Of a stretch of DNA of 40,430 nt, positions 453 through 40,430 are shown piece after piece. Source of the DNA: Escherichia phage MirsaeidiM_Esher7. The stretch lies in sequence record PQ593108.1; one strand, given 5' to 3'. A model generated the notes under the pieces. It was not told the origin of the DNA, ran no database searches, and was given only the letters and a program-made list of their open reading frames with translations. Position 1 is the first letter of the stretch; each line of letters starts with the position of its first letter. The position numbers and the translations under genes are program-made.

Positions 453-995
453 TTACTTGTGGTTTCTATGAGACCTATCTCGCTTAGGGGACCGTAGGTT
501 TACTGCGTACTTCTTGTGCTTCTCTGTTCGTAAGGCGTCCAGCCAAGCCTCTAGTTCCTCTATGGAGTCCGAGGTCTTCGTGAAGCATTTACCTTTAACC
601 CGGAGCTGAGCACGATACTTGCCCGTTGGCTTGAAGAAGCTGATTCCTTTGGGCAGACCGTTAGTCTCCCCGCCTTCTGAGTTCCAGCGGTTCTCCAGCT
701 CAGTCACAAGCCTATAGTTCTCAGGCCTATCGTCAAGTCTATCACCATTAATATGGTCTACCAACATTCCATTAGGTATTCGACCTACAGCTAGACTATA
801 TATGATTCTTGAGCGTCTATATCTGCTTCCCAGCACCTTCACTATAGCATACCCGGATGGATGCACAGAGAAGCCCATTGGTTCACCCGGAATCTTCTTC
901 GAGCTACCGAAAGGCTTCTTGCACACCAAGTTTCCGTCAACATATGCGTAGTGGTTAAAGAGGGCCACCCTGTCGATGGCCTTCTGTTTACTCAT
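453..995 (-). CDS. HNH endonuclease with C-terminal AP2-like DNA-binding domain (putative homing endonuclease)
   Basis: 180 aa; HNH motif region VDHINGDRLDDRPENYRLVT; C-terminal GISFFKPTGKYRAQLRVKGK...SIEELEAWLD resembles an AP2 domain; ATG with AGGAGGAG RBS; T7 has no such gene here. Confidence 0.8.
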   Translation of the reverse strand: MSKQKAIDRVALFNHYAYVDGNLVCKKPFGSSKKIPGEPMGFSVHPSGYAIVKVLGSRYRRSRIIYSLAVGRIPNGMLVDHINGDRLDDRPENYRLVTELENRWNSEGGETNGLPKGISFFKPTGKYRAQLRVKGKCFTKTSDSIEELEAWLDALRTEKHKKYAVNLRSPKRDRSHRNHK

Positions 996-3886: not shown

Positions 3887-6800
3887 TTACTTCTGTTCAA
3901 GAGCAGAAAGTCTGGCTTCGATTCTTTCCAGTTTTCTTCTCTGATAAGCGGCTTCAGCAAAGAAAATTCCGTCAGGCCGAACACCCCACTCCTCACCCTC
4001 TTCGTGAATAACCACCTCGGTGTACACAGGTTCTTCAGTAGTAGTGACATTACCCTCCTCGTCAGTGTGTTCAATGATTTCATTGTGCGAAAATACCGTA
4101 TCGGTCATCCGTGGATACTTGTCATAGCACAGAACAGCATAACGACAATTCGTACTGTTTTCATCCATCAGACCATGTGCAATGAATACATCACGAATTT
4201 GCTGAGCAATAACCCCGAAGTGAATACGAGCATCATTGCCTTTCAGTTGAACAGCATCTAACCACTGGTACATGATGTAGTGAACGTCACCCCAAGCATC
4301 TAGGAAAGCATCATCAAAAACTACCGGCTCTGTTTTCCTCTCCCCGTTAGAAGTAACAATAGGGTTACTTCCAAGGTATGCAGTGGAGAAACGGTTGCGA
4401 GGCCCACCAAGCGCAGTGACGTTATCGTTATAAGGCTTAACATCAGCAGTCTGGAACAGATGCTCAGCTCCGTTGTAAACTATCCGCCTTGAGTCGGTGT
4501 TATTTGCACCATAAAGCGTAATCTGTGCGCCAGAAGAAGAACTGGTACTGTCGCCTCCGCAAAATATGGTGCGCTGCCCTGCAGGGTTATCAGTCGGTAT
4601 AGATTTCCCGATAAACCCATATTCACCTTCCATTAAAACTTCAGAGCGAATGTTACTACTGGTGCTGGCTCTAATGGTCACATGACCTAAACCCAAATCC
4701 CCTGTAAATTCCATTGGCGCAGGAACAGTGCGAATCCCATTCGTATCAAAAAACACGGGAACAGCTCTGTTAGGTACAGCACCATACCTGAAATCACGGG
4801 AAACATGATTGCTTGGGCCAATCTTCATTTTGTAGCAATACAAATCTGAGGGATGACCATCCGATTTGAATGGGTCCTTCGCTGAGTTATCTCCATATGT
4901 CCATGGGTTAAAATGGTCCTCTCCACCAAACATGTAGTAGATGTAATTATCCTTCACAACTACCGAACCAACACCTACACCTGAGTTAACTATTCCGCCC
5001 TGATAAATCTGGTCAGTGATGTTAACCCATTCAATATCATCTGCATTCCAATTGTTTACATTCAAGCGTGCATAGAAGGTGCGAGGATAAGATGCCTTGT
5101 AACGATCATCTGGTGCACCTGCTTCCCATTCATTTTCTGCACGTTCTGAACCAAACATAATAAGGTCATCCCCTACTTTAGCAAAAGGTAATGTAGTATG
5201 ATGAACATTATGTGGAAATCTCAGTGACTCCCAAGTCTGACCTATGTCTCTACTACGATGCAAAGAGCTACCTAGTCTATCCCCACGAGTACCACGAGTG
5301 ATAAGATACAATACACCATCATAGTACTTGATGCACGGTTCTGACGCATCTGGTTCATACTCAGCTGGTATCTGACGACGAACATAGTTAGCTGGATTGT
5401 CGAAAGCATTAGGGAAGTAGAAGAGTCCAACTTCGCGTGGAGCTACATCGCCTTGATGATAACCCATAACAAAGCCATTGTTATCAATAGTAGCAAAGCT
5501 ATGCACCTCTGTGACACGAGGGATTAGACCAAGGTCTGTCTTACGCCATGGAGACTTATGGAAAGAAGTACCCATGTGCCAATTCTTTCCAGCGTTATTC
5601 AAATCTGAAGTCTGCTGGTTGGATGTAAGAACCGTGAAGTTGTCCTTATCTATTATGGTTGCAACAGTCATATCACCGGATACACCTGTTACCGCAGAAT
5701 TAGAGAAGTTAACAAAATCACCCACGAATAGTCCGTGGTCTGGTACATGTATTGTTGCATATGGCTGATTTGCATCTTTAGTGATACCACCAGTAAGATG
5801 CAGGCTACGAGACATGGGGCGATCCCACAATGCACAATTGGTTAATTCGTTCTTGGCTAAAGTACGTGTTTCAATCATGGCAAACAGACGGTTGCGACAT
5901 ACGCCCATACTCATACAGTGATAGTTCACTGTAGGGTAATCTGGATGCAGATCAGTTAACCACTCTGGAGTAGACCATGTTTGACCATCATCACCAGACT
6001 TAACCCATGATACATGCAGACGACTAACACCATGACGATCGCTACCCATGTAAGGTGCATATATTACATTATCATATACGAACGCTTTATCCTGAGGCCA
6101 CGCATTGTAATAAGGGGTGTCCGTTATTTTGAACAACTCCCCCTGAACAAATTCCTCAGAGGCATAATAAAGAGGTTGTCCGGGAATGCGCTCATAAACG
6201 AAACGAGTGTTGATGAAGCGACTAATGTCAGGCAGGGATGTGACCTTATATGTCTTCCCATTGCCATTAATCTTTTGTCCAACCGGTATGTCGTTTAATG
6301 CGCTCGTTAACGCTGCTGTATCATCAGTGACACCATCCCCTTTAGCACCCCAACCACGAACATCATTTTCATCAAGCCAGCGTGCTCTATGTAATTCAGG
6401 GTAGAGTATTGCCCCTTCCGGGTTTGAAATCTGACTTCTTAAAGCAGCATCACCAACACTAACCCACGCACCTAATCCAATCCCACCAGAAGTTTCAGGA
6501 GTTGAACCAGCAGGAACGTTCTTTGGAAGCGTACCATCCCAGCGGTAATAATCACCATCCTCTTCCCATAGCAGGACCTCGCTCCATGTTGTAACGTTGT
6601 AGCCTTTCTCGAAGGAGCGACGGGTCATATAGCCAATTAGACCAGCTTCCCTGATACTCTCAGCGATTCGGCGTGCTTCGTCCTCGCTATCCTTAGCGTT
6701 GCCAGCAGAGCTACCAGCAGCATCGGCATATTCCTTCGCTAAGTCAACCGTTTGGTCTCGACCTTCTTCTGCAATATGGATAGCCTGAAGCTCTGAATTG

Positions 6801-7081
6801 GTCAGGTCACTAGCTGTCAACACTGAGCCATTCCTGAAGTCTACCACTAAGTCAGTTCCAGTCTGACGGTGAATACGAACGATGTCGAAACCTGATTGGT
6901 CAACCAACATCTCAATCATCGTTGGATTAAGGAATCGGTAATCTCGACCAACTTCCAGTACACGGTTCAGGGTAGGGTTAGAGCTATTCACCAGCGTAAC
7001 AACAACAAACGTTCTAGCTAGGTAATCGAACTCAATCCTGTACTGAGTGTTCCCTGAAGGGAATTGTGTAATCGTGGACAT
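3887..7081 (-). CDS. tailspike: endo-N-acetylneuraminidase (K1 capsule endosialidase, endoNF-like) with T7 gp17-like N-terminal adaptor and C-terminal intramolecular chaperone domain
   Basis: 1064 aa. N-terminus (IEFDYLARTFVVVTL) resembles the T7 gp17 tail-attachment domain; two Asp-boxes SGDDGQTW (aa 362-369) and SRDIGQTW (aa 610-617); E581, R596, R647 and S911 fall exactly where I recall the endoNF catalytic residues and the maturation cleavage site. Confidence 0.93.
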   Translation of the reverse strand: MSTITQFPSGNTQYRIEFDYLARTFVVVTLVNSSNPTLNRVLEVGRDYRFLNPTMIEMLVDQSGFDIVRIHRQTGTDLVVDFRNGSVLTASDLTNSELQAIHIAEEGRDQTVDLAKEYADAAGSSAGNAKDSEDEARRIAESIREAGLIGYMTRRSFEKGYNVTTWSEVLLWEEDGDYYRWDGTLPKNVPAGSTPETSGGIGLGAWVSVGDAALRSQISNPEGAILYPELHRARWLDENDVRGWGAKGDGVTDDTAALTSALNDIPVGQKINGNGKTYKVTSLPDISRFINTRFVYERIPGQPLYYASEEFVQGELFKITDTPYYNAWPQDKAFVYDNVIYAPYMGSDRHGVSRLHVSWVKSGDDGQTWSTPEWLTDLHPDYPTVNYHCMSMGVCRNRLFAMIETRTLAKNELTNCALWDRPMSRSLHLTGGITKDANQPYATIHVPDHGLFVGDFVNFSNSAVTGVSGDMTVATIIDKDNFTVLTSNQQTSDLNNAGKNWHMGTSFHKSPWRKTDLGLIPRVTEVHSFATIDNNGFVMGYHQGDVAPREVGLFYFPNAFDNPANYVRRQIPAEYEPDASEPCIKYYDGVLYLITRGTRGDRLGSSLHRSRDIGQTWESLRFPHNVHHTTLPFAKVGDDLIMFGSERAENEWEAGAPDDRYKASYPRTFYARLNVNNWNADDIEWVNITDQIYQGGIVNSGVGVGSVVVKDNYIYYMFGGEDHFNPWTYGDNSAKDPFKSDGHPSDLYCYKMKIGPSNHVSRDFRYGAVPNRAVPVFFDTNGIRTVPAPMEFTGDLGLGHVTIRASTSSNIRSEVLMEGEYGFIGKSIPTDNPAGQRTIFCGGDSTSSSSGAQITLYGANNTDSRRIVYNGAEHLFQTADVKPYNDNVTALGGPRNRFSTAYLGSNPIVTSNGERKTEPVVFDDAFLDAWGDVHYIMYQWLDAVQLKGNDARIHFGVIAQQIRDVFIAHGLMDENSTNCRYAVLCYDKYPRMTDTVFSHNEIIEHTDEEGNVTTTEEPVYTEVVIHEEGEEWGVRPDGIFFAEAAYQRRKLERIEARLSALEQK

Positions 7082-29532: not shown

Positions 29533-29977
29533 TGTACACCACCAATTCTACGACCACTAGATTCAGGTGCTGGGTGAAGCGTTGTGCGTCAGTGGTGTGC
29601 ATCTGTAGACGCTTATGGTTGAAGACGTGTGAGTTGCTAATCTTCACGTAAACTTCTTCAGGCTTTCCATGGACGATGAACGTCTGGCCTACACCAATCT
29701 TGTCGATGGTCAGGACTTCACGCTTCACAGTCACAGGTGGTACGCTCGAAGCTGGCAGGGCCTGAGGCTGTTCAACAACTTCTACACTGTAGTTCTCGTG
29801 ACCATTCCAGCTGGTAGTCTCACCAATGTAATCCTCAGGATGCCACCCCTTCTCAACAATTACGCTATGGTCTTCTCGCTTTTCGAAAACAGCATCAGTG
29901 AATTGAGGGTTATTCATCAGGGTGTTCTTTGAGAATCTGTAACGTGTTCCAACTTCAAGGTCTTTACAGGTAATCAT
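29522..29977 (-). CDS. hypothetical protein inserted between endonuclease I and lysozyme genes
   Basis: 151 aa; ATG at 29977 overlaps the gene 3 stop (TGATG) with an AAGGAG RBS; T7 has no gene in this position as far as I recall; no motif recognised. Confidence 0.6.
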   Translation of the reverse strand: MITCKDLEVGTRYRFSKNTLMNNPQFTDAVFEKREDHSVIVEKGWHPEDYIGETTSWNGHENYSVEVVEQPQALPASSVPPVTVKREVLTIDKIGVGQTFIVHGKPEEVYVKISNSHVFNHKRLQMHTTDAQRFTQHLNLVVVELVVYNGK

Positions 29978-30429
29978 CACTTAACTCCTTTCTTCTTGGG
30001 GATGAGGATACCTGAGGGCAGACGTACAGTCTCCTCTCGCAGCCACTCAACCGGGATAAACTTGTCGGCATACTTAAAGCCGTTCTTTTCGCACCATGCG
30101 CCATACGTGGTCGGAGATCCTTTGTATAGCTTGGAGCGGGAACTTGAGAACACGAACCGGATGTCTAACTCTGGGTGCTGTTCTCGTACCAGAAGGTGCT
30201 TCTTACGGTCATCACTATCGAAGATACCTTTGGTCTCCACGATAATACCGTTAGGAAGGATAAAATCTGGTGTGTACTTGTGGTCGGAAGCCGGAATCAC
30301 ATAGTTGATATAATGGCTTTCGTACTCCGCTTTGACGCCGTTCTGTTCCAGCCACTGCTGGTTCTTGGCTTCAAGTCCAGAGCGGTAGGCACCCACAGAG
30401 TGCCCCCGTTTTGGTGTCCATGCAGCCAC
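29977..30429 (-). CDS. endonuclease I, Holliday junction resolvase (T7 gp3-like)
   Basis: 150 aa; matches recalled T7 gp3 (FRSGLE, YVIPAS.H.YTPDF.LPNGI.VETKG, DDRKKHLL.REQHPELDIR.VFSSSR.KLYKGSPT). The apparent start codon is GTG at 30429. Confidence 0.9.
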   Translation of the reverse strand: MAAWTPKRGHSVGAYRSGLEAKNQQWLEQNGVKAEYESHYINYVIPASDHKYTPDFILPNGIIVETKGIFDSDDRKKHLLVREQHPELDIRFVFSSSRSKLYKGSPTTYGAWCEKNGFKYADKFIPVEWLREETVRLPSGILIPKKKGVK

Positions 30430-31434: not shown

Positions 31435-31662
31435 TTAAGCATATCGGTTCACCATTACACAGTCGTCAGAATGGTCATACTCCTCTACCCTAATAATCAT
31501 ACTAGGAGTCTTCATATAAGCAAACGGTAGGAGGTCATAGTCACAATACTCACTGTGTCCTAATGAGAACGCTAACATACCCTTACGTAGCGCCTTGTAT
31601 GCTCGGTAAAAACTGAGCGCTCTACGCTTCACCCCTACAGCTTTAAGTTCTTCACGCGTCAT
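31435..31662 (-). CDS. hypothetical protein (1.8 slot)
   Basis: 75 aa, ATG with AAAGG RBS, overlaps the gp1.7 stop by 11 nt. Confidence 0.5.
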   Translation of the reverse strand: MTREELKAVGVKRRALSFYRAYKALRKGMLAFSLGHSEYCDYDLLPFAYMKTPSMIIRVEEYDHSDDCVMVNRYA

Positions 31663-32191
31663 AACACTTACCTTTATGTAGGTCGAACAGCTCCTGATAG
31701 AAGGCTGCTTTGTTCAGGTCCTTCTCCATAGTCGCCAGCTCTGACTTCTTACCAGCCCGGAGTCGATACTTCAGGACGTTACCCATGCAGAAACCACGGA
31801 ACTCGCTGACAGTCAGGGACCGAGCGATAATCTCAATGGACTCCACACCGTCAAAGACCTGATAGTGGGACGGCTTGCGTACGTCGTCGATAGCCTTAGC
31901 GTAAGGCTGGTCGTCTGTAGTAGTTACCTCTGGTTTCTCCAGTTTAGGCTTACGTATGTCCATCGCTCGGATTTCACCTAAGGTTATCTTTTTATTGATA
32001 TTTACAGGGCAGAGGTAGCAAGGGACATTATGGCAGAAAATACCGCAGCCATTCAAATCATCTGGGCGACCTTCGTTATTATCTACCAACTTAATGATAA
32101 TCTCTTGTTCAAGTGCGTTCATACTGTTAGCTCCTTTATTACAGGTGTGTGGATAACGGTCATCCTTCTCTAAGCAAGCTATACACCCCAT
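31652..32191 (-). CDS. gp1.7-like nucleotide kinase
   Basis: 179 aa; strong match to recalled T7 gp1.7 (GCIACLEKDDRYPHTCNKGAN, IIKL.DNNEGRPDDLNGCGI, GNVLKYRLRAGKKSELA). Confidence 0.85.
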   Translation of the reverse strand: MGCIACLEKDDRYPHTCNKGANSMNALEQEIIIKLVDNNEGRPDDLNGCGIFCHNVPCYLCPVNINKKITLGEIRAMDIRKPKLEKPEVTTTDDQPYAKAIDDVRKPSHYQVFDGVESIEIIARSLTVSEFRGFCMGNVLKYRLRAGKKSELATMEKDLNKAAFYQELFDLHKGKCYDA

Positions 32192-34442: not shown

Positions 34443-37124
34443 TTAAGCGAATGCAAAGTCTGAAGACAGAATGTCTTCGATATTCAGTTTACCTTTCTTC
34501 GGAAGCTCAGGCAACTTGTCGCGCTGGCTCTCATGAAGCTGGTATTCAAACTGCTCGTAGAAGTCATGCAGCACATCGTTGTCGCGGTAGGTCTCGACCA
34601 TCGTCTCACGGACACCACGGAACAGATATTCAGCGTCAGCCGGGATGGTCCCGAAGCTATCATGAATCACTGCGAATGACATCACGCCATACTTGCGATG
34701 CGTGTGGACTACAGTCTTGCGTAGGTGACTACCATCTTGTGAGTGGACGAAGTTCGGGCTAATGCCTGACTCCTGCTTGTGCTTGTCCAGCTCTTTCTTC
34801 GTGCCTTTGTTGACGGTAGGCTGAAGGTTGAATGACCCTAAGAACATCAGGTTCAAACGTGTGGTATCCTTCTTGCGGTATTCCTGCCAGACCGGGAAAC
34901 CATCAGGTGTTACCCAGTGTACCGGAAGGCAAGGCTTCAGGATTTCACCAGTCTTCTTGTCCTTCACTTCAGCAGCCAGCAGCTTGGCAGCACCCTGAAG
35001 CCACTTCATCGCGTCAACCGCAGCAACTACGGTCACGCTCACAGCTTCCCAAATCATATTAGCCATGAAGCGAGCCGCTTGGCTTGGCTCGGTGAACATA
35101 GCGCCAGACCCTGAGTCAATCGCTGGCATCACGATGTCCTCATAAACTTGGTCTGCGAAGCCGTACTCTTTCGACCCGTATGCCAGAGTCATGACTGAAC
35201 GCTTAGTGACCTTGCGTGACATACCGTATGTCAGCCACTGACGGGCCAGCTCTCGTGTCCCCAGCTTGATACGTTCGGTAATCTCACCAGTTTTCTTATC
35301 CTCGTGAGTGACCATCTCGTTGTCAGTACCGGTAATCAGCAGGACTTTAAGCTCTTCCTCAATGCGGTCAGACACGATGCGGTAGATGTCTTGGACCTCA
35401 CCGGAAGGCGTCAGGTTTACTGCATGTCCACCGATGTGATCACGAAGCATCGCGCTAAAGTGCTGAATCCCTGAGCATGACCCATCGAACGCTATCGGCA
35501 GTGAGCAGGAGTAAGACAATCCGTGGTGCATTACACCAGCATACTCGAAGCAGAACGCAAGGAAGCAGAACGGAGAGTCTAACTTACCCCACCACTCAAT
35601 GCTGTCCATCGGTGCCTTAGCAGTAGCCATGATGTTGTCGTGGTTATCTTCCACCCACTTGATGCGCTCCTCGAAGGTTACTTTATCAATACCCGCACAG
35701 TTTGCACCGTGGACCTTCAGCCATCTGAAACCGTCAGCACCAATAGGCTTACCGACTGCCAGAGTCAGGAGACCCTTCTGCATGTCGTTACCCTGAGGGT
35801 TGAACATCGGCACAGCGTAGACTCGACCGCGCCAGTCCATGTTGTATGGAAACCAGATGGCCTTGAACTGAGAGAACTTATTCGCTTGGTTGATGATAAA
35901 GCTCAGTGATAATCTGCGTGACTGTCGGGCCTTCTCGCGGCGATAGATACCAGCAGCAGCTTTCTTCCACGCCTTGAGTTCCTCTTCAGTCTCACCAGCA
36001 TAGTCCTCAGGCTTCAGCGGTTCCATCTGAGGGATGTCATCAATAGGCGTGTTGTTCAGCTTCTCGACCATGTTCACCACGTTCAATACCTTCTTGTTCA
36101 CTTTCCAAGGTGTATTTTGAATGATGTTCACAGCGTCATAGACTTCAGGCATGTACACGTCTTCATAACGTGCTACCGCAGACTTAGACCCTAAGCGAAT
36201 CAATGGTAACGGTCTGCGACCTTTGGCCCAGTACCCACCGCCTACTACACCAGTCCACGGTTTAGGTGGAACGACGCAAGGCTGATAGACTGGCGCAATA
36301 CCAGCAAGGCTGAATCCACGTTGTGCCATCTTCTTTACCCAGAAGTCTGACAGGTGGACCATCTCAACGTCAGCCGCCGCATTGCCAGCACCATAACGCT
36401 TAAGCTCTACCAGTTGTGTGGACTGGATGACAATCTCGAGCATCTTGATGCCAACGTGTACCGCTTCGGTAGGACTCCAAGTCCCCCACGCATCTTCCAG
36501 TTGGCCTTGCTCCAGCATGGATGCCTCTACAGCTTGCATGTAGGCTTTCTTGTAGGATGCCCCAGCTCGCTTGTTCAAGTTCTCAGCTATCGCCTTCTTG
36601 AAGTGCTCCTTCTCCTTGTCACGGATGCGACCGAAGCGGATTTCGTCCTCAAGTGTGCGACCTAACGCTGAGGCCATAGGTGTAATCGGTATCCCTTCAG
36701 GCTTGACCAGCTTGGAGAGTATGACCTTCAGTATGATAACCGCAGCGGACTCACAGGAGATGCGAAGAGAGCGGTCCTTGACGGCCTTCTCTTCAGTGCT
36801 CAACGTGGTGAACGCTACGCTAGGACGAGAGGTTGACAGCTTCCCGTCTGGACCTTCGTGCCACTCCTTGACGGCTTGCGCAATCTTAGGAACCAGAGTC
36901 TGCATCAAAGGCTTGGCGACCTGATTGTCTGCCAGTTCCCCTCGCTCAGTCTGTCGCTCAAGGTTCTTGATGAAACGTCGCTCGCCTTCAGTGTATGCCT
37001 CATGCTCAAGCTGAAGCTGCTTGACTGCAAGGTCTTGCCCGTAGTGGTCGGCAAGCAGGTTAAACGGCTCAATTGCGTTCGACACATCAGTGAAGTCGTG
37101 TTTGTCAATAGAGATGACGCTCAT
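34443..37124 (-). CDS. DNA-directed RNA polymerase, single-subunit (T7 gp1-like)
   Basis: 893 aa; near-collinear with recalled T7 RNAP (FNLLADHYG, PVYQPCVVPPKPWTG, IWFPYNMDWRGRVYA, DGSCSGIQHFSAML, VHSQDGSHLR, terminal DILSSDFAFA). Confidence 0.98.
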   Translation of the reverse strand: MSVISIDKHDFTDVSNAIEPFNLLADHYGQDLAVKQLQLEHEAYTEGERRFIKNLERQTERGELADNQVAKPLMQTLVPKIAQAVKEWHEGPDGKLSTSRPSVAFTTLSTEEKAVKDRSLRISCESAAVIILKVILSKLVKPEGIPITPMASALGRTLEDEIRFGRIRDKEKEHFKKAIAENLNKRAGASYKKAYMQAVEASMLEQGQLEDAWGTWSPTEAVHVGIKMLEIVIQSTQLVELKRYGAGNAAADVEMVHLSDFWVKKMAQRGFSLAGIAPVYQPCVVPPKPWTGVVGGGYWAKGRRPLPLIRLGSKSAVARYEDVYMPEVYDAVNIIQNTPWKVNKKVLNVVNMVEKLNNTPIDDIPQMEPLKPEDYAGETEEELKAWKKAAAGIYRREKARQSRRLSLSFIINQANKFSQFKAIWFPYNMDWRGRVYAVPMFNPQGNDMQKGLLTLAVGKPIGADGFRWLKVHGANCAGIDKVTFEERIKWVEDNHDNIMATAKAPMDSIEWWGKLDSPFCFLAFCFEYAGVMHHGLSYSCSLPIAFDGSCSGIQHFSAMLRDHIGGHAVNLTPSGEVQDIYRIVSDRIEEELKVLLITGTDNEMVTHEDKKTGEITERIKLGTRELARQWLTYGMSRKVTKRSVMTLAYGSKEYGFADQVYEDIVMPAIDSGSGAMFTEPSQAARFMANMIWEAVSVTVVAAVDAMKWLQGAAKLLAAEVKDKKTGEILKPCLPVHWVTPDGFPVWQEYRKKDTTRLNLMFLGSFNLQPTVNKGTKKELDKHKQESGISPNFVHSQDGSHLRKTVVHTHRKYGVMSFAVIHDSFGTIPADAEYLFRGVRETMVETYRDNDVLHDFYEQFEYQLHESQRDKLPELPKKGKLNIEDILSSDFAFA

Positions 37125-37221: not shown

Positions 37222-37482
37222 TTACTTGCATATCAGTGGGTTAGCGTGAAGATGACTGAAGTCACCGTGAGTCGTGTGCTTGATGGTTGACCGTTGGTCT
37301 ATCGCCTTCCAGCCTGAGACTAAAAGTTTACCATCGTCAGTGCTCGGTCGTCCACCATACGCCAGACACATCAGTTCGGACTTATGGCCCTCAGCCTCCA
37401 TGCGGCGGTGTAAGAACACGTCACGCTGTATTTGCTCTACACTGCTACGGATAGATGGTCTGTTAATGTATACGGTTTTCAT
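37222..37482 (-). CDS. hypothetical early protein
   Basis: 86 aa; ATGA overlap with the upstream nuclease gene stop. Confidence 0.5.
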   Translation of the reverse strand: MKTVYINRPSIRSSVEQIQRDVFLHRRMEAEGHKSELMCLAYGGRPSTDDGKLLVSGWKAIDQRSTIKHTTHGDFSHLHANPLICK

Positions 37483-37931
37483 TGTTGGTGTTCCCTTAAG
37501 TATTTGATTGCGTTGGATAATACCGCCTGTGAATCGTTAAACTTACCGAGGGCAAGATTACACTCCGTGCAGAGTAGACCTCGTACCTTGCCTGTTACAT
37601 GGCAGTGGTCTACCGCAAGACGCCGCTGGAGTGCGTCAGGATTTCCACATATTGCGCACACTCCTCCTTGCTCCTGAAGCATTTCTGCGTACTGAGCGGA
37701 TGTGATGCCATACCGTTTTTTTAGAGTTGAGTTAAGACACGCGTCCTTGTACGCATCTGACTTACGGTAGCGGCTTCTTAGCTCTTGCGCCATTTTCCCA
37801 GATTTATATTGAGCGATTTTCTCGTTTCGACACTTCTTGCAGTGGCCTTGGTAGCCATCTTTGTTCTTGGAGTCCTTATAGAACTCGCTCTTGGGTTTTA
37901 ATTCTCCACACTTACTACAAGTCTTACACAT
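37479..37931 (-). CDS. endonuclease VII-family (HNH-type) nuclease with N-terminal zinc-ribbon
   Basis: 150 aa; motif GGVCAICGNPDA...LAVDHCHVTGKVRGLLCTECNLALG is the Endonuclease_7 signature; N-terminal CKTCSKCG...HCKKC zinc ribbon. Confidence 0.8.
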   Translation of the reverse strand: MCKTCSKCGELKPKSEFYKDSKNKDGYQGHCKKCRNEKIAQYKSGKMAQELRSRYRKSDAYKDACLNSTLKKRYGITSAQYAEMLQEQGGVCAICGNPDALQRRLAVDHCHVTGKVRGLLCTECNLALGKFNDSQAVLSNAIKYLREHQQ

Positions 37932-38128
37932 TACAGTTTGCTCCCAAGTGTTGCTATATCCCAGACGTTCGCTAAATTGCGCACGAATCGTCCGTTAGGC
38001 TGACGTACAGTCCAGCGGCCCAGACGTACATAGTTGAATTTGTAGACTTTACGCGCCTTGTTAATGTCTCTCATCAGCACGTAGGCGATAAGTACATAGC
38101 TTATGGCTATCAATAGTGCAAGACTCAT
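37931..38128 (-). CDS. hypothetical early protein with N-terminal hydrophobic segment
   Basis: 65 aa; MSLALLIAISYVLIAYVLM then basic tail; TAATG overlap with downstream gene. Confidence 0.45.
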   Translation of the reverse strand: MSLALLIAISYVLIAYVLMRDINKARKVYKFNYVRLGRWTVRQPNGRFVRNLANVWDIATLGSKL

Positions 38129-38131
38129 AGT

Positions 38132-38299
38132 TTATCCCGCCAGTCCAATCCACATCAAGATACCGCGCACGACACCTACCGGAGAGAATATAATGTCCAC
38201 TGCCAGCCAGCCCAATCGTAATGCGTTACCATCAGTGAGCACCGCAGTAAGCCAAGATAGAATAATGGTTACGTAAAGTGCGATGATTGTAAATTTCAT
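38132..38299 (-). CDS. small hydrophobic early protein (55 aa)
   Basis: Start placed at the internal ATG (AGGAG RBS) rather than the upstream GTG at 38341; two predicted hydrophobic segments. Confidence 0.45.
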   Translation of the reverse strand: MKFTIIALYVTIILSWLTAVLTDGNALRLGWLAVDIIFSPVGVVRGILMWIGLAG

Positions 38300-38365: not shown

Positions 38366-38515
38366 TCACTCAGTGTGTAAGCTGTCGTGCATACGTTTGC
38401 GGCGCTTATAGACCACCTTCAGGAGACGCATAGACTCCTCGTGGTTTAATCGCCCGGTCTTGACCATAAGCCGGGCGATGGTGACGTGGTGCTGGCAGAG
38501 ACCATAAGTTACCAT
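38366..38515 (-). CDS. small hypothetical protein (49 aa) translationally coupled to the Ocr-like gene
   Basis: ATG overlaps the Ocr-like stop (TGATG), GGAGG within the upstream coding end; basic product MVTYGLCQHHVTIARLMVKTGRLNHEESMRLLKVVYKRRKRMHDSLHTE. Below the ORF-track size cut-off; low confidence. Confidence 0.35.
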   Translation of the reverse strand: MVTYGLCQHHVTIARLMVKTGRLNHEESMRLLKVVYKRRKRMHDSLHTE

Positions 38516-39039
38516 CACTCGCAGTCCTCCTCAGCAGCCTCAGGATCGAACACTACGTTATCGTTGATGTCTTCGACCTGCATGTGAAAACCTTCCTCAT
38601 AGAGTTCTTTTGCACATGCAATAGCCTCGTAAAGTGATACAGCTGCCTCAATTATCTCGCCTGTTCTAGTGTCAACTACCCAATATTCAGCCTTTTCGTC
38701 TTCCTCTTCAGCCTTTTCGTCGCTCTCTTCAGCCTCAAACCAGACTACATCCGAGCTATTAGACACATCGTTATACAGTGCCTCATAGATGCGAGCTTGT
38801 AGTATACGCGTTACGTCCTTGGTCTCAGGCATCAGCCCAGAGTCTTCGAACTCGTGGTCTATACCATCAGCAGCCATCACCGTAAAAATCTCGTGGTAAT
38901 AGTGCGGAACCTGACCGTCTACGACCTCATGCAGCGCATCGCTGTAGTCATCGCCTTCAGCTATTTCGTCGTACTGAATACGCTCATTGAACAGCTTAAC
39001 GGTTTCAGCCAGCAGCTCATAGTATGCGTTACGTTCCAT
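38515..39039 (-). CDS. ocr: Ocr-like anti-restriction DNA-mimic protein (gp0.3) with C-terminal extension
   Basis: N-terminal 118 aa closely match recalled T7 Ocr (VPHYY..IF.VMA..GID.EFEDSGLMP.TKDV.RILQARIYE); an additional 56 acidic residues follow (174 aa total vs about 117 in T7). Confidence 0.85.
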   Translation of the reverse strand: MERNAYYELLAETVKLFNERIQYDEIAEGDDYSDALHEVVDGQVPHYYHEIFTVMAADGIDHEFEDSGLMPETKDVTRILQARIYEALYNDVSNSSDVVWFEAEESDEKAEEEDEKAEYWVVDTRTGEIIEAAVSLYEAIACAKELYEEGFHMQVEDINDNVVFDPEAAEEDCE

Positions 39040-40375: not shown

Positions 40376-40430
40376 GGTCTTCAATGGGCGTATTCCCACT
40401 CCGTCTTATAGTCCTCTTCAGAGAACGAAC
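40376..40430. repeat. terminal direct repeat copy, identical to 1-55
   Basis: Exact 55-bp match to window start. Confidence 0.8.

Follow-up and report, generated by a model that had tools for sequence, protein, structure and literature searches.

The early region of Escherichia phage MirsaeidiM_Esher7 holds a gene for a nuclease of the endonuclease VII (Endo VII) family, which raises the question of what such an enzyme does at this locus. A sequence-only reading left two roles open, action on host DNA and homing. Our analysis of the window, by which we mean the whole 40,430-nucleotide stretch of DNA (PQ593108.1), a complete Kayfunavirus (K1F-like) genome, favors homing and disfavors action on host DNA. 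Specifically, we consider it likely that the open reading frame at 37479-37931 is a homing endonuclease gene (HEG) of the free-standing type and belongs to the DHHRN family of Endo VII-motif enzymes, founded by the cyanophage enzyme F-CphI. Homing is preferred over attack on host DNA because the gene is precisely inserted, is absent from ~99% of relatives, differs from its flanks in its pattern of identity, and is homologous to F-CphI over its full length. The relevant genes, and the parts of the nuclease, are as follows.

29977..30429, minus strand: gene 3, T7-type endonuclease I, a Holliday-junction resolvase (PF05367, E 1.2e-80)
34443..37124, minus strand: gene 1, T7-type single-subunit RNA polymerase, 893 aa (open reading frame; annotated so in K1F and relatives)
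37222..37482, minus strand: gp0.38 homologue, 86 aa, downstream flank of the nuclease (K1F annotation)
37479..37931, minus strand: nuclease gene, 150 aa, ATG start (exact coordinates confirmed); probable free-standing homing-endonuclease gene, Endo VII-motif/DHHRN family (Pfam, PHROG, F-CphI, fold, dN/dS)
37557..37658, minus strand: catalytic Endo VII/beta-beta-alpha-Me motif, nuclease residues 92-125 (alignment to T4 Endo VII and Hpy99I)
37764..37931, minus strand: first beta4-alpha2 zinc repeat, nuclease residues 1-56, ligands C5, C8, C31 and C34 (conserved cysteines, Hpy99I alignment)
37931..38128, minus strand: gp0.37 homologue, 65 aa, hydrophobic N-terminus, upstream flank of the nuclease (K1F annotation; PHROG 2385, unknown function)
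38132..38299, minus strand: gp0.36 homologue, 55 aa, unknown function (K1F annotation; PHROG 7319)
38366..38515, minus strand: gp0.35 homologue, 49 aa, with weak similarity to T7 gp0.4 (BLASTP, synteny)
38515..39039, minus strand: ocr (gp0.3), anti-restriction DNA mimic, 174 aa (PF08684, E 8.7e-32; PHROG 2568)

Domain searches bear out the family assignment made from the letters, that of an Endo VII-type beta-beta-alpha-Me nuclease. Residues 70-146 match PF02945 Endonuclease_7 in a Pfam scan (E 2.1e-27; 95.3 bits against a cutoff of 23.6), and the protein matches PHROG 2633 ‘endonuclease VII’ (E 1.2e-42). The DHHRN motif (CX2-4C, DH(x)H, R, CX2C-N) is complete. Within residues 92-125, C92, C95, C121 and C124 are structural zinc ligands, and D108, H109, H111, R117 and N125 align with D40, H41, H43, R54 and N62 of T4 Endo VII, whose motif (C23/C26, D40, H41, H43, R54, C58/C61, N62) served as our reference, and also with Hpy99I; the roles of these motif residues are taken from PMC6083498. 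Among 71 homologues, C121 is conserved in at least 90% and the other eight motif residues are invariant. The N-terminal zinc ribbon that had been read from the letters is likewise upheld, as the 71-sequence alignment shows C5, C8, C31 and C34 to be either invariant or conserved at above 90%, and these cysteines line up with the first of the Hpy99I CXXC...CXXC zinc sites. Residues 1-56 are predicted to form strands at 2-4, 11-13, 17-19 and 27-31 and helices at 32-44 and 46-56. In the crystal structure of Hpy99I, the first repeat reads the major groove (PMC2699513); by analogy, the N-terminal zinc repeat of the phage nuclease may be a module that reads DNA sequence. The AlphaFold model has a pLDDT of 95, and its only significant PDB fold matches in Foldseek are Hpy99I and T4 Endo VII. 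Judged from dN/dS values of around 0.08 (0.07-0.10) among three distinct full-length copies, the gene is under purifying selection and functional constraint.

Several other assignments were rejected. A Pfam scan to E 0.1 gives PF02945 for the nuclease, not the canonical HNH family PF01844, and PMC6083498 sets the DHHRN family apart from HNH enzymes on the basis of the HNH profile and the central Asn. DHHRN and HNH nucleases belong to the same beta-beta-alpha-Me superfamily. In the Pfam scan, a match to PP2C phosphatase (E 0.0012, under the cutoff) and one to NrfB were judged to be chance, and where the N-terminus matches PHROG families of ‘Lar-like restriction alleviation’ and sigma factors, the shared zinc ribbon alone accounts for it. 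No second Endo VII gene was found in the window, including one of the gene 13.5 type.

Relative to K1F, the nuclease gene is an insertion with sharply defined edges:

37483..37931, minus strand: 449-nt insertion relative to K1F (K1F alignment, blastn breakpoints, sequence read)
37941..37945, minus strand: GGGAG, Shine-Dalgarno-like, 9 nt upstream of the nuclease ATG and inside the 3' end of gp0.37 (sequence read)
37492..37497, minus strand: AAGGGA, Shine-Dalgarno-like, within the nuclease coding sequence near its 3' end and 9 nt upstream of the gp0.38 ATG (sequence read)

Genes 0.37 and 0.38 abut in K1F, and the insertion sits precisely at their stop/start overlap, with blastn breakpoints at window positions 37483/37929 against both K1F and PhiNW-B1; because AATG is present at both junctions, its boundaries are ambiguous by 4 nt. 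The nuclease ATG overlaps the TAA stop of gp0.37, and its TGA stop overlaps the ATG of gp0.38. The GGGAG element likewise precedes gp0.38 in genomes without the insertion. The AAGGGA element, whose position is taken by AAGGAG or AGGAG in other nuclease lineages, would maintain expression of gp0.38. In every lineage, in fact, the gp0.38 Shine-Dalgarno sequence lies within the 3' end of the nuclease gene, and the stop/start overlaps are retained at both ends. On the upstream side of the junction the window agrees letter for letter with HEG-less genomes over 44-47 nt, and on the downstream side over 136 nt; close to the junction the insertion alone separates the alleles, with no distinguishing polymorphism seen. 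This arrangement suggests that the insertion itself splits the nuclease target, an argument that pools different genomes because none of the sampled HEG-less genomes by itself agrees with the window both upstream and downstream of the junction. Apparent ‘spacers’ of 66 nt and 135 nt between gp0.37 and gp0.38 of HEG-less genomes, considered as nuclease remnants, are actually longer gp0.38 N-termini that begin at the same TAATG. No group I intron or other Rfam family was detected in the region at E values up to 1, or across the window at gathering thresholds.

The distribution of the gene is patchy. Among 186 related GenBank records, the window lineage is absent from 184 and present in two, both Salmonella phages (CHRF); with three metagenome contigs, these two phages make up its known occurrences. 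A search of viral contigs for exact copies of the empty-site junction proved too strict, with 2 loci returned, and the slot census was guided by proteins instead. Other nuclease lineages occupy the gp0.37/gp0.38 slot in 4 of 23 IMG/VR Kayfunavirus loci, and at least six further divergent homologues (40-64% identical) lie in the same slot of other Kayfunavirus genomes.

The history of the gene is also discordant with that of its flanks. Compared with the CHRF phages, the window is 95.8% identical in the nuclease gene and 95.4% in gp0.37, and identity drops to 74.7% in gp0.38 and 67% in the next intergenic region; compared with K1F, gp0.38 is 99.6% identical at the nucleotide level. The identity breakpoint falls within a few nucleotides of the nuclease 3' end. 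On a metagenome contig, the same nuclease lineage lies beside a third gp0.38 allele. Of the two flanking genes, gp0.37 is conserved (94-97% nucleotide identity across all genomes compared) and gp0.38 is hypervariable, with alleles that share 41-99% amino-acid identity and differ in N-terminal length. By these comparisons, the nuclease gene has moved between differing flank alleles, and the signature of mobility is present, namely an exact presence/absence polymorphism at a fixed site. In CHRF_10022, a 1-nt deletion in an A7 run truncates the annotated coding sequence, which implies that the gene is dispensable and able to decay. In a neighbor-joining tree without support values, the same-slot genes are interspersed with gp13.5 types, a pattern that fits either independent invasions or old divergence.

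In the mechanism we propose, the cleavage, target site, expression timing and self-protection of the nuclease are features that we only infer. From T7 biology, host RNA polymerase would transcribe the gene soon after infection, as drawn from its position in the early operon upstream of gene 1, which marks the downstream end of that operon. A scan for sigma-70-like promoters found no enrichment (6 sites versus 6.6 expected in shuffled sequence), and it is thus from gene order that we infer early expression. Translation of the nuclease would begin at the ribosome-binding site that gp0.38 uses when the insert is absent. The protein has two zinc-stabilized beta4-alpha2 repeats, the N-terminal one probably reading DNA sequence as in Hpy99I. 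During mixed infection, it could then cut a HEG-less co-infecting Kayfunavirus genome at or near the gp0.37/gp0.38 junction, and recombinational repair from the HEG-bearing genome would copy the nuclease gene into the cut genome. The nuclease’s own genome would probably be protected, its target being split by the 449-nt insertion. There is no downstream co-conversion tract, as the sequence is K1F-like straight after the nuclease stop codon; this feature is as readily explained by a routine recombination crossover where the genes meet as by a cut at the junction.

A broader reading, which we hold tentatively and doubt more than we credit, is that the gp0.37/gp0.38 overlap is a dedicated homing slot for at least seven DHHRN lineages, each protected by the splitting of its target, and that nuclease traffic drives the hypervariability of gp0.38. 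Against homing more generally, the presence of at least seven divergent lineages in an identical slot could reflect an ancient resident gene that has diverged and been lost repeatedly, rather than repeated active homing. A literature search for experimental data on members of the DHHRN family in T7-like phages found none.

The early genes around the nuclease bear on the proposal that it acts on the host. The sequence-only reading placed the nuclease in the early region, as its position upstream of gene 1 confirms, and remarked on the lack of a gp0.7 protein kinase. The kinase is indeed missing: in tblastn searches of all six window frames, T7 gp0.7 (359 aa) and the 244-aa kinase of Kayfunavirus IMM-002 gave best E values of 1.1 and 0.81, respectively, compared with 3.9e-33 for T7 gp0.7 against IMM-002 as a positive control, and the largest open reading frame from the left end to the RNA polymerase gene is the 174-aa ocr. 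This absence is not special, however, because the annotated early region of K1F has no kinase either. Kinase presence varies within Kayfunavirus, and we found no sign that the nuclease replaces the kinase; IMM-002, whose kinase is short, carries both. Two sets of annotations were discarded as kinase evidence. ‘Protein kinase’ labels on Vec13 and IME177 lie under an early-region match, and the RefSeq copy of Vec13 shows no kinase but an ‘ocr-like anti-restriction’ feature. As for the ‘nucleotide kinase’ of 179 aa at 31652-32191, it is of the gp1.7 type and is not a protein kinase.

The four small neighbors that had been put forward as host-takeover candidates are present at the positions given and correspond to K1F genes 0.38, 0.37, 0.36 and 0.35. 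They are conserved early genes of K1F, not partners of the nuclease; all match PHROGs without known function, and gp0.37 and gp0.38 have no Pfam domain. Only gp0.35 can be linked to a T7 early gene. It matches T7 gp0.4, an FtsZ inhibitor, weakly in BLASTP (34% over 41 aa, pairwise E 3e-5) and lies directly after ocr, in the same position as T7 gene 0.4; moreover, a gp0.35 homologue on L009 carries a precomputed match to PF26807 Phage_T7_GP04. The link is drawn from these three observations, as the Pfam set we used gives T7 gp0.4 itself no match.

Four other explanations must be weighed against homing. Early degradation or nicking of host DNA by the nuclease, perhaps offsetting the absent kinase, would suit the early position of the gene and the lack of a kinase in the window, and the Endo VII and HNH genes of a Kayfunavirus have been speculated to act on host DNA (PMC8861465). 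Nevertheless, we regard this role as quite improbable, given that the gene is missing from K1F, an established phage that has no early kinase annotated either, and from 184 of 186 relatives, that the kinase and the nuclease are not complementary in their occurrence, and that the characterized members of the clade, F-CphI and Hpy99I, are sequence specific. T7 breaks down host DNA by means of gp3 and gp6, and the window already has both gp3 (E 1e-80) and the gp6 exonuclease (E 8e-79). The name of the Pfam family, ‘Recombination endonuclease VII’, and an active site common to T4 Endo VII might instead point to a Holliday-junction resolvase or debranching enzyme that acts, like T4 gp49, in recombination or packaging. 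The alignment, however, is limited to nuclease residues 84-132 and gp49 residues 15-69, with nothing past residue 69, and the nuclease carries its motif at the C-terminus, like members of the endonuclease clade. The phage, which owns gp3, has no need for the Endo VII protein to act as a resolvase, and a separate resolvase in the genome is the criterion used in PMC6083498 to recognize a non-resolvase; nor is a gene absent from 184 of 186 related GenBank records a core gene. We give this explanation almost no weight.

An inactive or decaying remnant without present function is very improbable as well. The frameshifted CHRF_10022 copy and the dispensability of the gene in the genus would fit decay, but the window copy is full length, retains every catalytic and zinc-binding residue, yields a high-confidence structural model, and belongs to a set of three distinct copies with the low dN/dS values given above. 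Inter-phage exclusion is closer to homing: a nuclease that cuts related co-infecting phages, or their early region, would suppress them, and any spread of its gene would be a by-product and not the selected function. An early position upstream of gene 1, a slot common to many divergent lineages, and a restriction enzyme (Hpy99I) as the closest solved relative would all be consistent with exclusion, as would the variability of the adjoining gp0.38, which is expected under nuclease-driven diversifying pressure. The biochemistry is the same as in homing, and the two differ in their selective account, so that they are inseparable by sequence alone. Still, 98-99% of relatives do without the gene and the benefit to the phage is hypothetical; we judge exclusion unlikely.

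If the gene is a HEG, the finding is an ordinary one of little weight by itself, as Endo VII-motif homing endonucleases have stood as a defined group since 2018 and annotators of T7-like phages routinely report ‘endonuclease VII’ accessory genes. There are several modest implications. When Autographiviridae genomes are annotated, Endo VII accessory genes of this kind should not be labeled resolvases or nucleases that attack the host. In phage engineering and therapy, where E. coli K1 is a target of K1F-like phages, a mobile nuclease can promote recombination when two phages infect the same cell. The locus might also serve as an experimental model, as its slot is cleanly either empty or occupied, is home to several nuclease lineages and shows an abrupt recombination breakpoint. 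Finally, the homing slot, if real, would be a compact natural system for studying competition among HEG alleles and nuclease-driven mosaicism in a T7-like phage that is genetically tractable.

Among known systems, the closest parallel is F-CphI (ORF177/S-PM2p180 of cyanophage S-PM2), the enzyme on which the DHHRN homing-endonuclease family was founded (Fang et al. 2018, PMC6083498). Nuclease residues 3-149 align end to end with F-CphI residues 10-142 (40% identity, E 3e-33, BLASTP), and both proteins combine an N-terminal CxxC...CxxC ribbon with a C-terminal Endo VII motif, the arrangement of the ‘endonuclease clade’ (PMC6083498). The residues C84, D101, H102, R110 and N118, which mutagenesis showed to be essential in F-CphI, correspond to C92 or C95, D108, H109, R117 and N125. 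Both are free-standing phage genes. F-CphI, however, lies beside psbA in a T4-like cyanomyovirus, whereas the nuclease gene lies between two small early genes of a T7-like coliphage; moreover, F-CphI targets the psbA intron-insertion site and its genome is protected by a group I intron, whereas the window has no intron. Closer to home, the gene 13.5 ‘endonuclease VII’ proteins of phiYeO3-12, EcoDS1, Hafnia phage Ca and many Klebsiella phages belong to the same family, as do the same-slot homologues in IMM-002, Baskent_phicoli_1 and CHRF_20041. These proteins (129-150 aa, 44-64% identical to the nuclease) are likewise accessory and squeezed between conserved genes with stop/start overlaps, and such genes have been called ‘extra genes’ relative to close relatives (PMC8861465). 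Gene 13.5 differs in location: it is found among the late structural genes, flanked by genes 13 and 14 for internal virion proteins, and not in the early region.

The best solved-structure match is the Helicobacter pylori enzyme Hpy99I, a type II restriction endonuclease (PDB 3fc3; PMC2699513), which matches by sequence (E 2e-6) and, over 160 columns and the whole length of the nuclease, by fold (E 8.5e-6). The likeness extends to a pair of beta4-alpha2 repeats, both of which hold a Cys4 zinc site and the second of which bears a D-H...N active site, as defined in PMC2699513. The nuclease begins with the first repeat, whereas Hpy99I carries, ahead of its repeats at the N-terminus, an additional beta-barrel of ~65 residues that is needed for activity; Hpy99I also recognizes a 5-bp palindrome and is paired with a methyltransferase, whereas the nuclease has no methyltransferase neighbor. 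T4 endonuclease VII (gp49; PDB 1e7d, 1en7) resembles the nuclease in its catalytic beta-beta-alpha-Me core and in one structural zinc site, with ~87 columns aligned in Foldseek at a TM of ~0.36. By contrast with the nuclease, gp49 is a structure-specific core gene product with an N-terminal motif followed by ~90 residues that have no counterpart, and its E65 is replaced by L128 in the nuclease, as in Hpy99I.

In genomic habit, the nuclease gene resembles the Seg and Mob HEGs of T-even phages, which are small nuclease open reading frames between conserved genes, are patchily distributed, and propagate in mixed infections, where their enzymes cut HEG-less genomes and repair copies the genes in. 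Seg and Mob enzymes belong to the GIY-YIG and HNH catalytic families, however, and they usually cut within a neighboring gene and protect their own genomes by target polymorphism, none of which was seen near the window junction. In the dedicated-slot proposal, many lineages (40-64% identical) would have entered at exactly the same nucleotide, and self-protection would resemble that of introns and inteins, unlike the target polymorphism of classical free-standing HEGs.

Judged from its sequence and those of its relatives, the nuclease gene of this phage is real and intact, and probably an active free-standing homing endonuclease gene (HEG) of the DHHRN/Endo VII-motif family, DHHRN being the name given by Fang et al. 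2018 (PMC6083498). It lies in a complete T7-like genome, read on the minus strand, whose early region is 90–94% identical to those of coliphage K1F and other Kayfunavirus genomes. The ORF occupies exactly the coordinates assigned to it by the sequence-only reading, and matches Pfam Endonuclease_7 (E = 2.1e-27) and PHROG 2633 ‘endonuclease VII’ (E = 1.2e-42). The four small neighbours named there as candidate host-takeover proteins are also present, as homologues of K1F 0.38, 0.37, 0.36 and 0.35, all in PHROGs of unknown function.

Features of the window discussed in the text
453–995, minus strand: HNH endonuclease, 180 aa (PHROG 99, E = 4e-39)
1009–2772: terminase large subunit
3887–7081: endosialidase tailspike, 1064 aa
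29522–29980, minus strand: ORF of 152 aa between endonuclease I (gp3) and amidase (gp3.5)
29977–30429: endonuclease I (gp3), E = 1.2e-80
34443–37124: single-subunit RNA polymerase, 893 aa
37222–37482, minus strand: gp0.38
37479–37931, minus strand: Endo VII-family nuclease, 150 aa
38366–38515, minus strand: gp0.35, 49 aa
38515–39039, minus strand: ocr homologue, 174 aa

Several other features of the genome deserve comment. Bases 1–55 recur exactly at 40376–40430 as a direct repeat at both window ends; the terminal repeat reported for K1F is far longer, at ~180 bp (PMC4925675), and 55 nt is typical of k-mer overlap, so this looks like an assembler overlap rather than a K1F-type repeat. The true genome is probably ~40,375 bp, with a window start that is probably arbitrary. 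The ocr homologue (T7 gene 0.3 has 354 nt, 117 codons) carries the Pfam ocr domain over residues 4–94, followed by an acidic C-terminal extension. Directly after ocr, in the same position as T7 gp0.4, gp0.35 is weakly similar to that protein (34% over 41 aa, pairwise E = 3e-5); the gp0.35 homologue on metagenome contig L009 has a precomputed match to PF26807 (Phage_T7_GP04), a model outside the Pfam set searched here. The 152-aa ORF beside endonuclease I has no Pfam match, and PHROGs 16385 and 15211 (unknown function) match its C-terminal half only; its GTG start may be overcalled, because relatives annotate a ~74-aa gp3.2 there.

In K1F the gene 0.37 stop codon overlaps the gene 0.38 start (…CTGTAATGAAAACC…), and relative to K1F the window has 449 extra nt exactly at this overlap, approximately the nuclease ORF alone, with AATG at both junctions. 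The nuclease ATG overlaps the gp0.37 TAA stop, and the gp0.38 ATG is in turn overlapped by the nuclease TGA. The GGGAG element serving gp0.38 where the slot is empty is taken over by the nuclease gene in the window, and a new Shine–Dalgarno-like AAGGGA for gp0.38 lies inside the nuclease 3′ coding end. No group I intron or other Rfam family was found, and the nuclease gene is therefore free-standing.

At the DNA level, the gene occurs in only 2 of the 186 GenBank phage records matching the surrounding 1.1 kb, the Salmonella Typhi phages CHRF_20120 and CHRF_10022 (species Kayfunavirus SH4); a close or related copy was also found on each of three metagenome contigs. Endo VII-family homologues are found by tblastn in 1730 phage records and include gene 13.5 of phiYeO3-12 and EcoDS1, flanked by genes 13 and 14 for internal virion proteins. 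Among the 34 related loci examined, every nuclease gene of the early region has the gp0.37 stop codon (T[AG]ATG) as its exact starting point. These same-slot nucleases comprise at least seven lineages, with 40–64% identity among all of them: the window type, L008 (64% identical to the window gene), and IMM-002, L027, L016, Baskent_phicoli_1 and L034 (44–50%). They are not separated from the gp13.5 types in an unsupported neighbour-joining tree. The slot, occupied in 4 of 23 IMG/VR Kayfunavirus loci, is a hotspot; its many divergent lineages need not mean that it was invaded again and again, since a long-resident gene that was lost repeatedly could leave the same pattern. Upstream gp0.37 is conserved, and downstream gp0.38 is highly variable in sequence and N-terminal length. 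Among homologues in loci L001–L035, gp0.38 shows 41–99% amino-acid identity and at least three N-terminal length classes, with gp0.37 and RNA polymerase on either side mostly well conserved; nuclease traffic may drive this variability. Elsewhere in the genome, the HNH gene immediately downstream of that for the terminase large subunit appears to be a second sporadic free-standing homing endonuclease gene, since DNA-level matches to it occur in only 11 phage records.

Compared with the CHRF phages, the window is 95.8% identical in the nuclease gene and 95.4% in upstream gp0.37, but only 74.7% in downstream gp0.38 and 67% in the next intergenic region; its gp0.38 is instead 99.6% identical to that of HEG-less K1F. 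All informative sites up to 37475 are K1F-like and the first ones past the gene (37948 and 37949) are CHRF-like, so the nuclease sits on a sharp mosaic boundary, beside different gp0.38 alleles. Contig L009 has a third gp0.38 allele beside the same nuclease lineage. Among three distinct full-length copies dN/dS is 0.07–0.10, and the gene is not decaying. In the CHRF_10022 copy, one nucleotide is missing from an A7 run (equivalent to window 37716), and the CDS is annotated as a truncated 321 nt; either the frameshift is real and the copy is decaying, or the homopolymer was misread in sequencing.

The protein itself has every sequence feature of the DHHRN family, with cleavage predicted. In a 71-sequence alignment, D108, H109, H111, R117 and N125 are present in the nuclease and invariant among homologues, and the N-terminal zinc ribbon proposed by the sequence-only reading is borne out by invariant C31 and C34 and >90% conserved C5 and C8. 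By sequence, the solved structure closest to the nuclease is that of the restriction enzyme Hpy99I (E = 2e-6), followed by T4 endonuclease VII (E = 6e-4). A Foldseek search of the PDB with an AlphaFold model (71 homologues; mean pLDDT 95) also gives significant matches to these two alone, with Hpy99I matching over the whole length. The Hpy99I crystal structure contains two β4-α2 repeats, each with one Cys4 zinc, the first of which reads the major groove (PMC2699513). The nuclease has both: residues 1–56, predicted to form four strands and two helices, hold C5, C8, C31 and C34, and the second repeat holds C92, C95, C121 and C124 together with D108, H109 and N125.

Ordinary homing appears to be the best account of these features. 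By analogy with T7 gene order, the operon ahead of gene 1 would be transcribed by the host and the nuclease made early in infection; a promoter scan gave 6 sigma-70-like sites, against 6.6 expected from shuffled sequence. If an HEG-less genome entered the same cell, the enzyme would cleave it near the junction, and repair would copy the nuclease gene into the cut genome. The window is identical to HEG-less L013, L014 and L023 for 44–47 nt upstream and to HEG-less K1F for 136 nt downstream, and in these comparisons no flank polymorphism near the junction separates protected from susceptible alleles. The target would either span the junction and be split by insertion or lie further away. A plain recombination crossover would account equally well for a downstream co-conversion tract of zero length, and inter-phage exclusion, which would use the same biochemistry, is inseparable from homing here.

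Other roles fare less well. Holliday-junction resolution is contradicted by architecture: in T4 gp49, only residues 15–69 align, with nuclease residues 84–132, placing the motif N-terminally in gp49 but C-terminally in the nuclease. Among Endo VII-motif proteins, an N-terminal motif marks the resolvase clade of gp49-like proteins, and a C-terminal motif the endonuclease clade of F-CphI, intron-encoded genes of T7-like phages and Hpy99I (PMC6083498). Moreover, the nuclease gene is dispensable and gp3 is present; podoviruses with T7 endonuclease I have been argued not to need Endo VII-motif proteins as resolvases (PMC6083498). Attack on host DNA, suggested by the sequence-only reading and raised as speculation in the case of a related phage (PMC8861465), is disfavoured because nearly all relatives do without the gene and the characterised clade members are sequence-specific. 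The inactive remnant that the same reading had considered is contradicted by intact catalytic residues and low dN/dS.

In the whole window, tblastn with T7 gp0.7 and the 244-aa IMM-002 kinase found no protein kinase (best E ~1), whereas the T7 gp0.7 query finds the IMM-002 kinase gene with E = 3.9e-33 as a positive control. With the ORF, zinc ribbon, neighbours and kinase absence all checked, the original observation holds up on every point. The annotated K1F early region (0.1, 0.2, 0.3, 0.35, 0.36, 0.37, 0.38, 1) also contains no kinase. The IMM-002 kinase (L005, 1725–2459) matches T7 gp0.7 residues 20–218, with nothing aligned to the C-terminal ~140 residues and no match in local Pfam. Because IMM-002 encodes an Endo VII nuclease as well as a kinase, neither gene substitutes for the other. 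The kinase is a variable early gene within Kayfunavirus, and its absence from the window is unremarkable.

What merits following is the multi-lineage slot and possible self-protection by target splitting, and nothing else. Although the nuclease resembles Hpy99I in both repeats, it is without the N-terminal β-barrel of that enzyme, and its gene is without a methyltransferase neighbour. F-CphI of cyanophage S-PM2, which Fang et al. 2018 (PMC6083498) showed to be a homing endonuclease with the Endo VII motif that cuts site-specifically and depends on Mg2+, aligns with the nuclease over the whole length of the latter (40% identity, E = 3e-33). The DHHRN family is thus already known, and the window gene is a further member, in a phage that, like K1F, is without the gp0.7 kinase.
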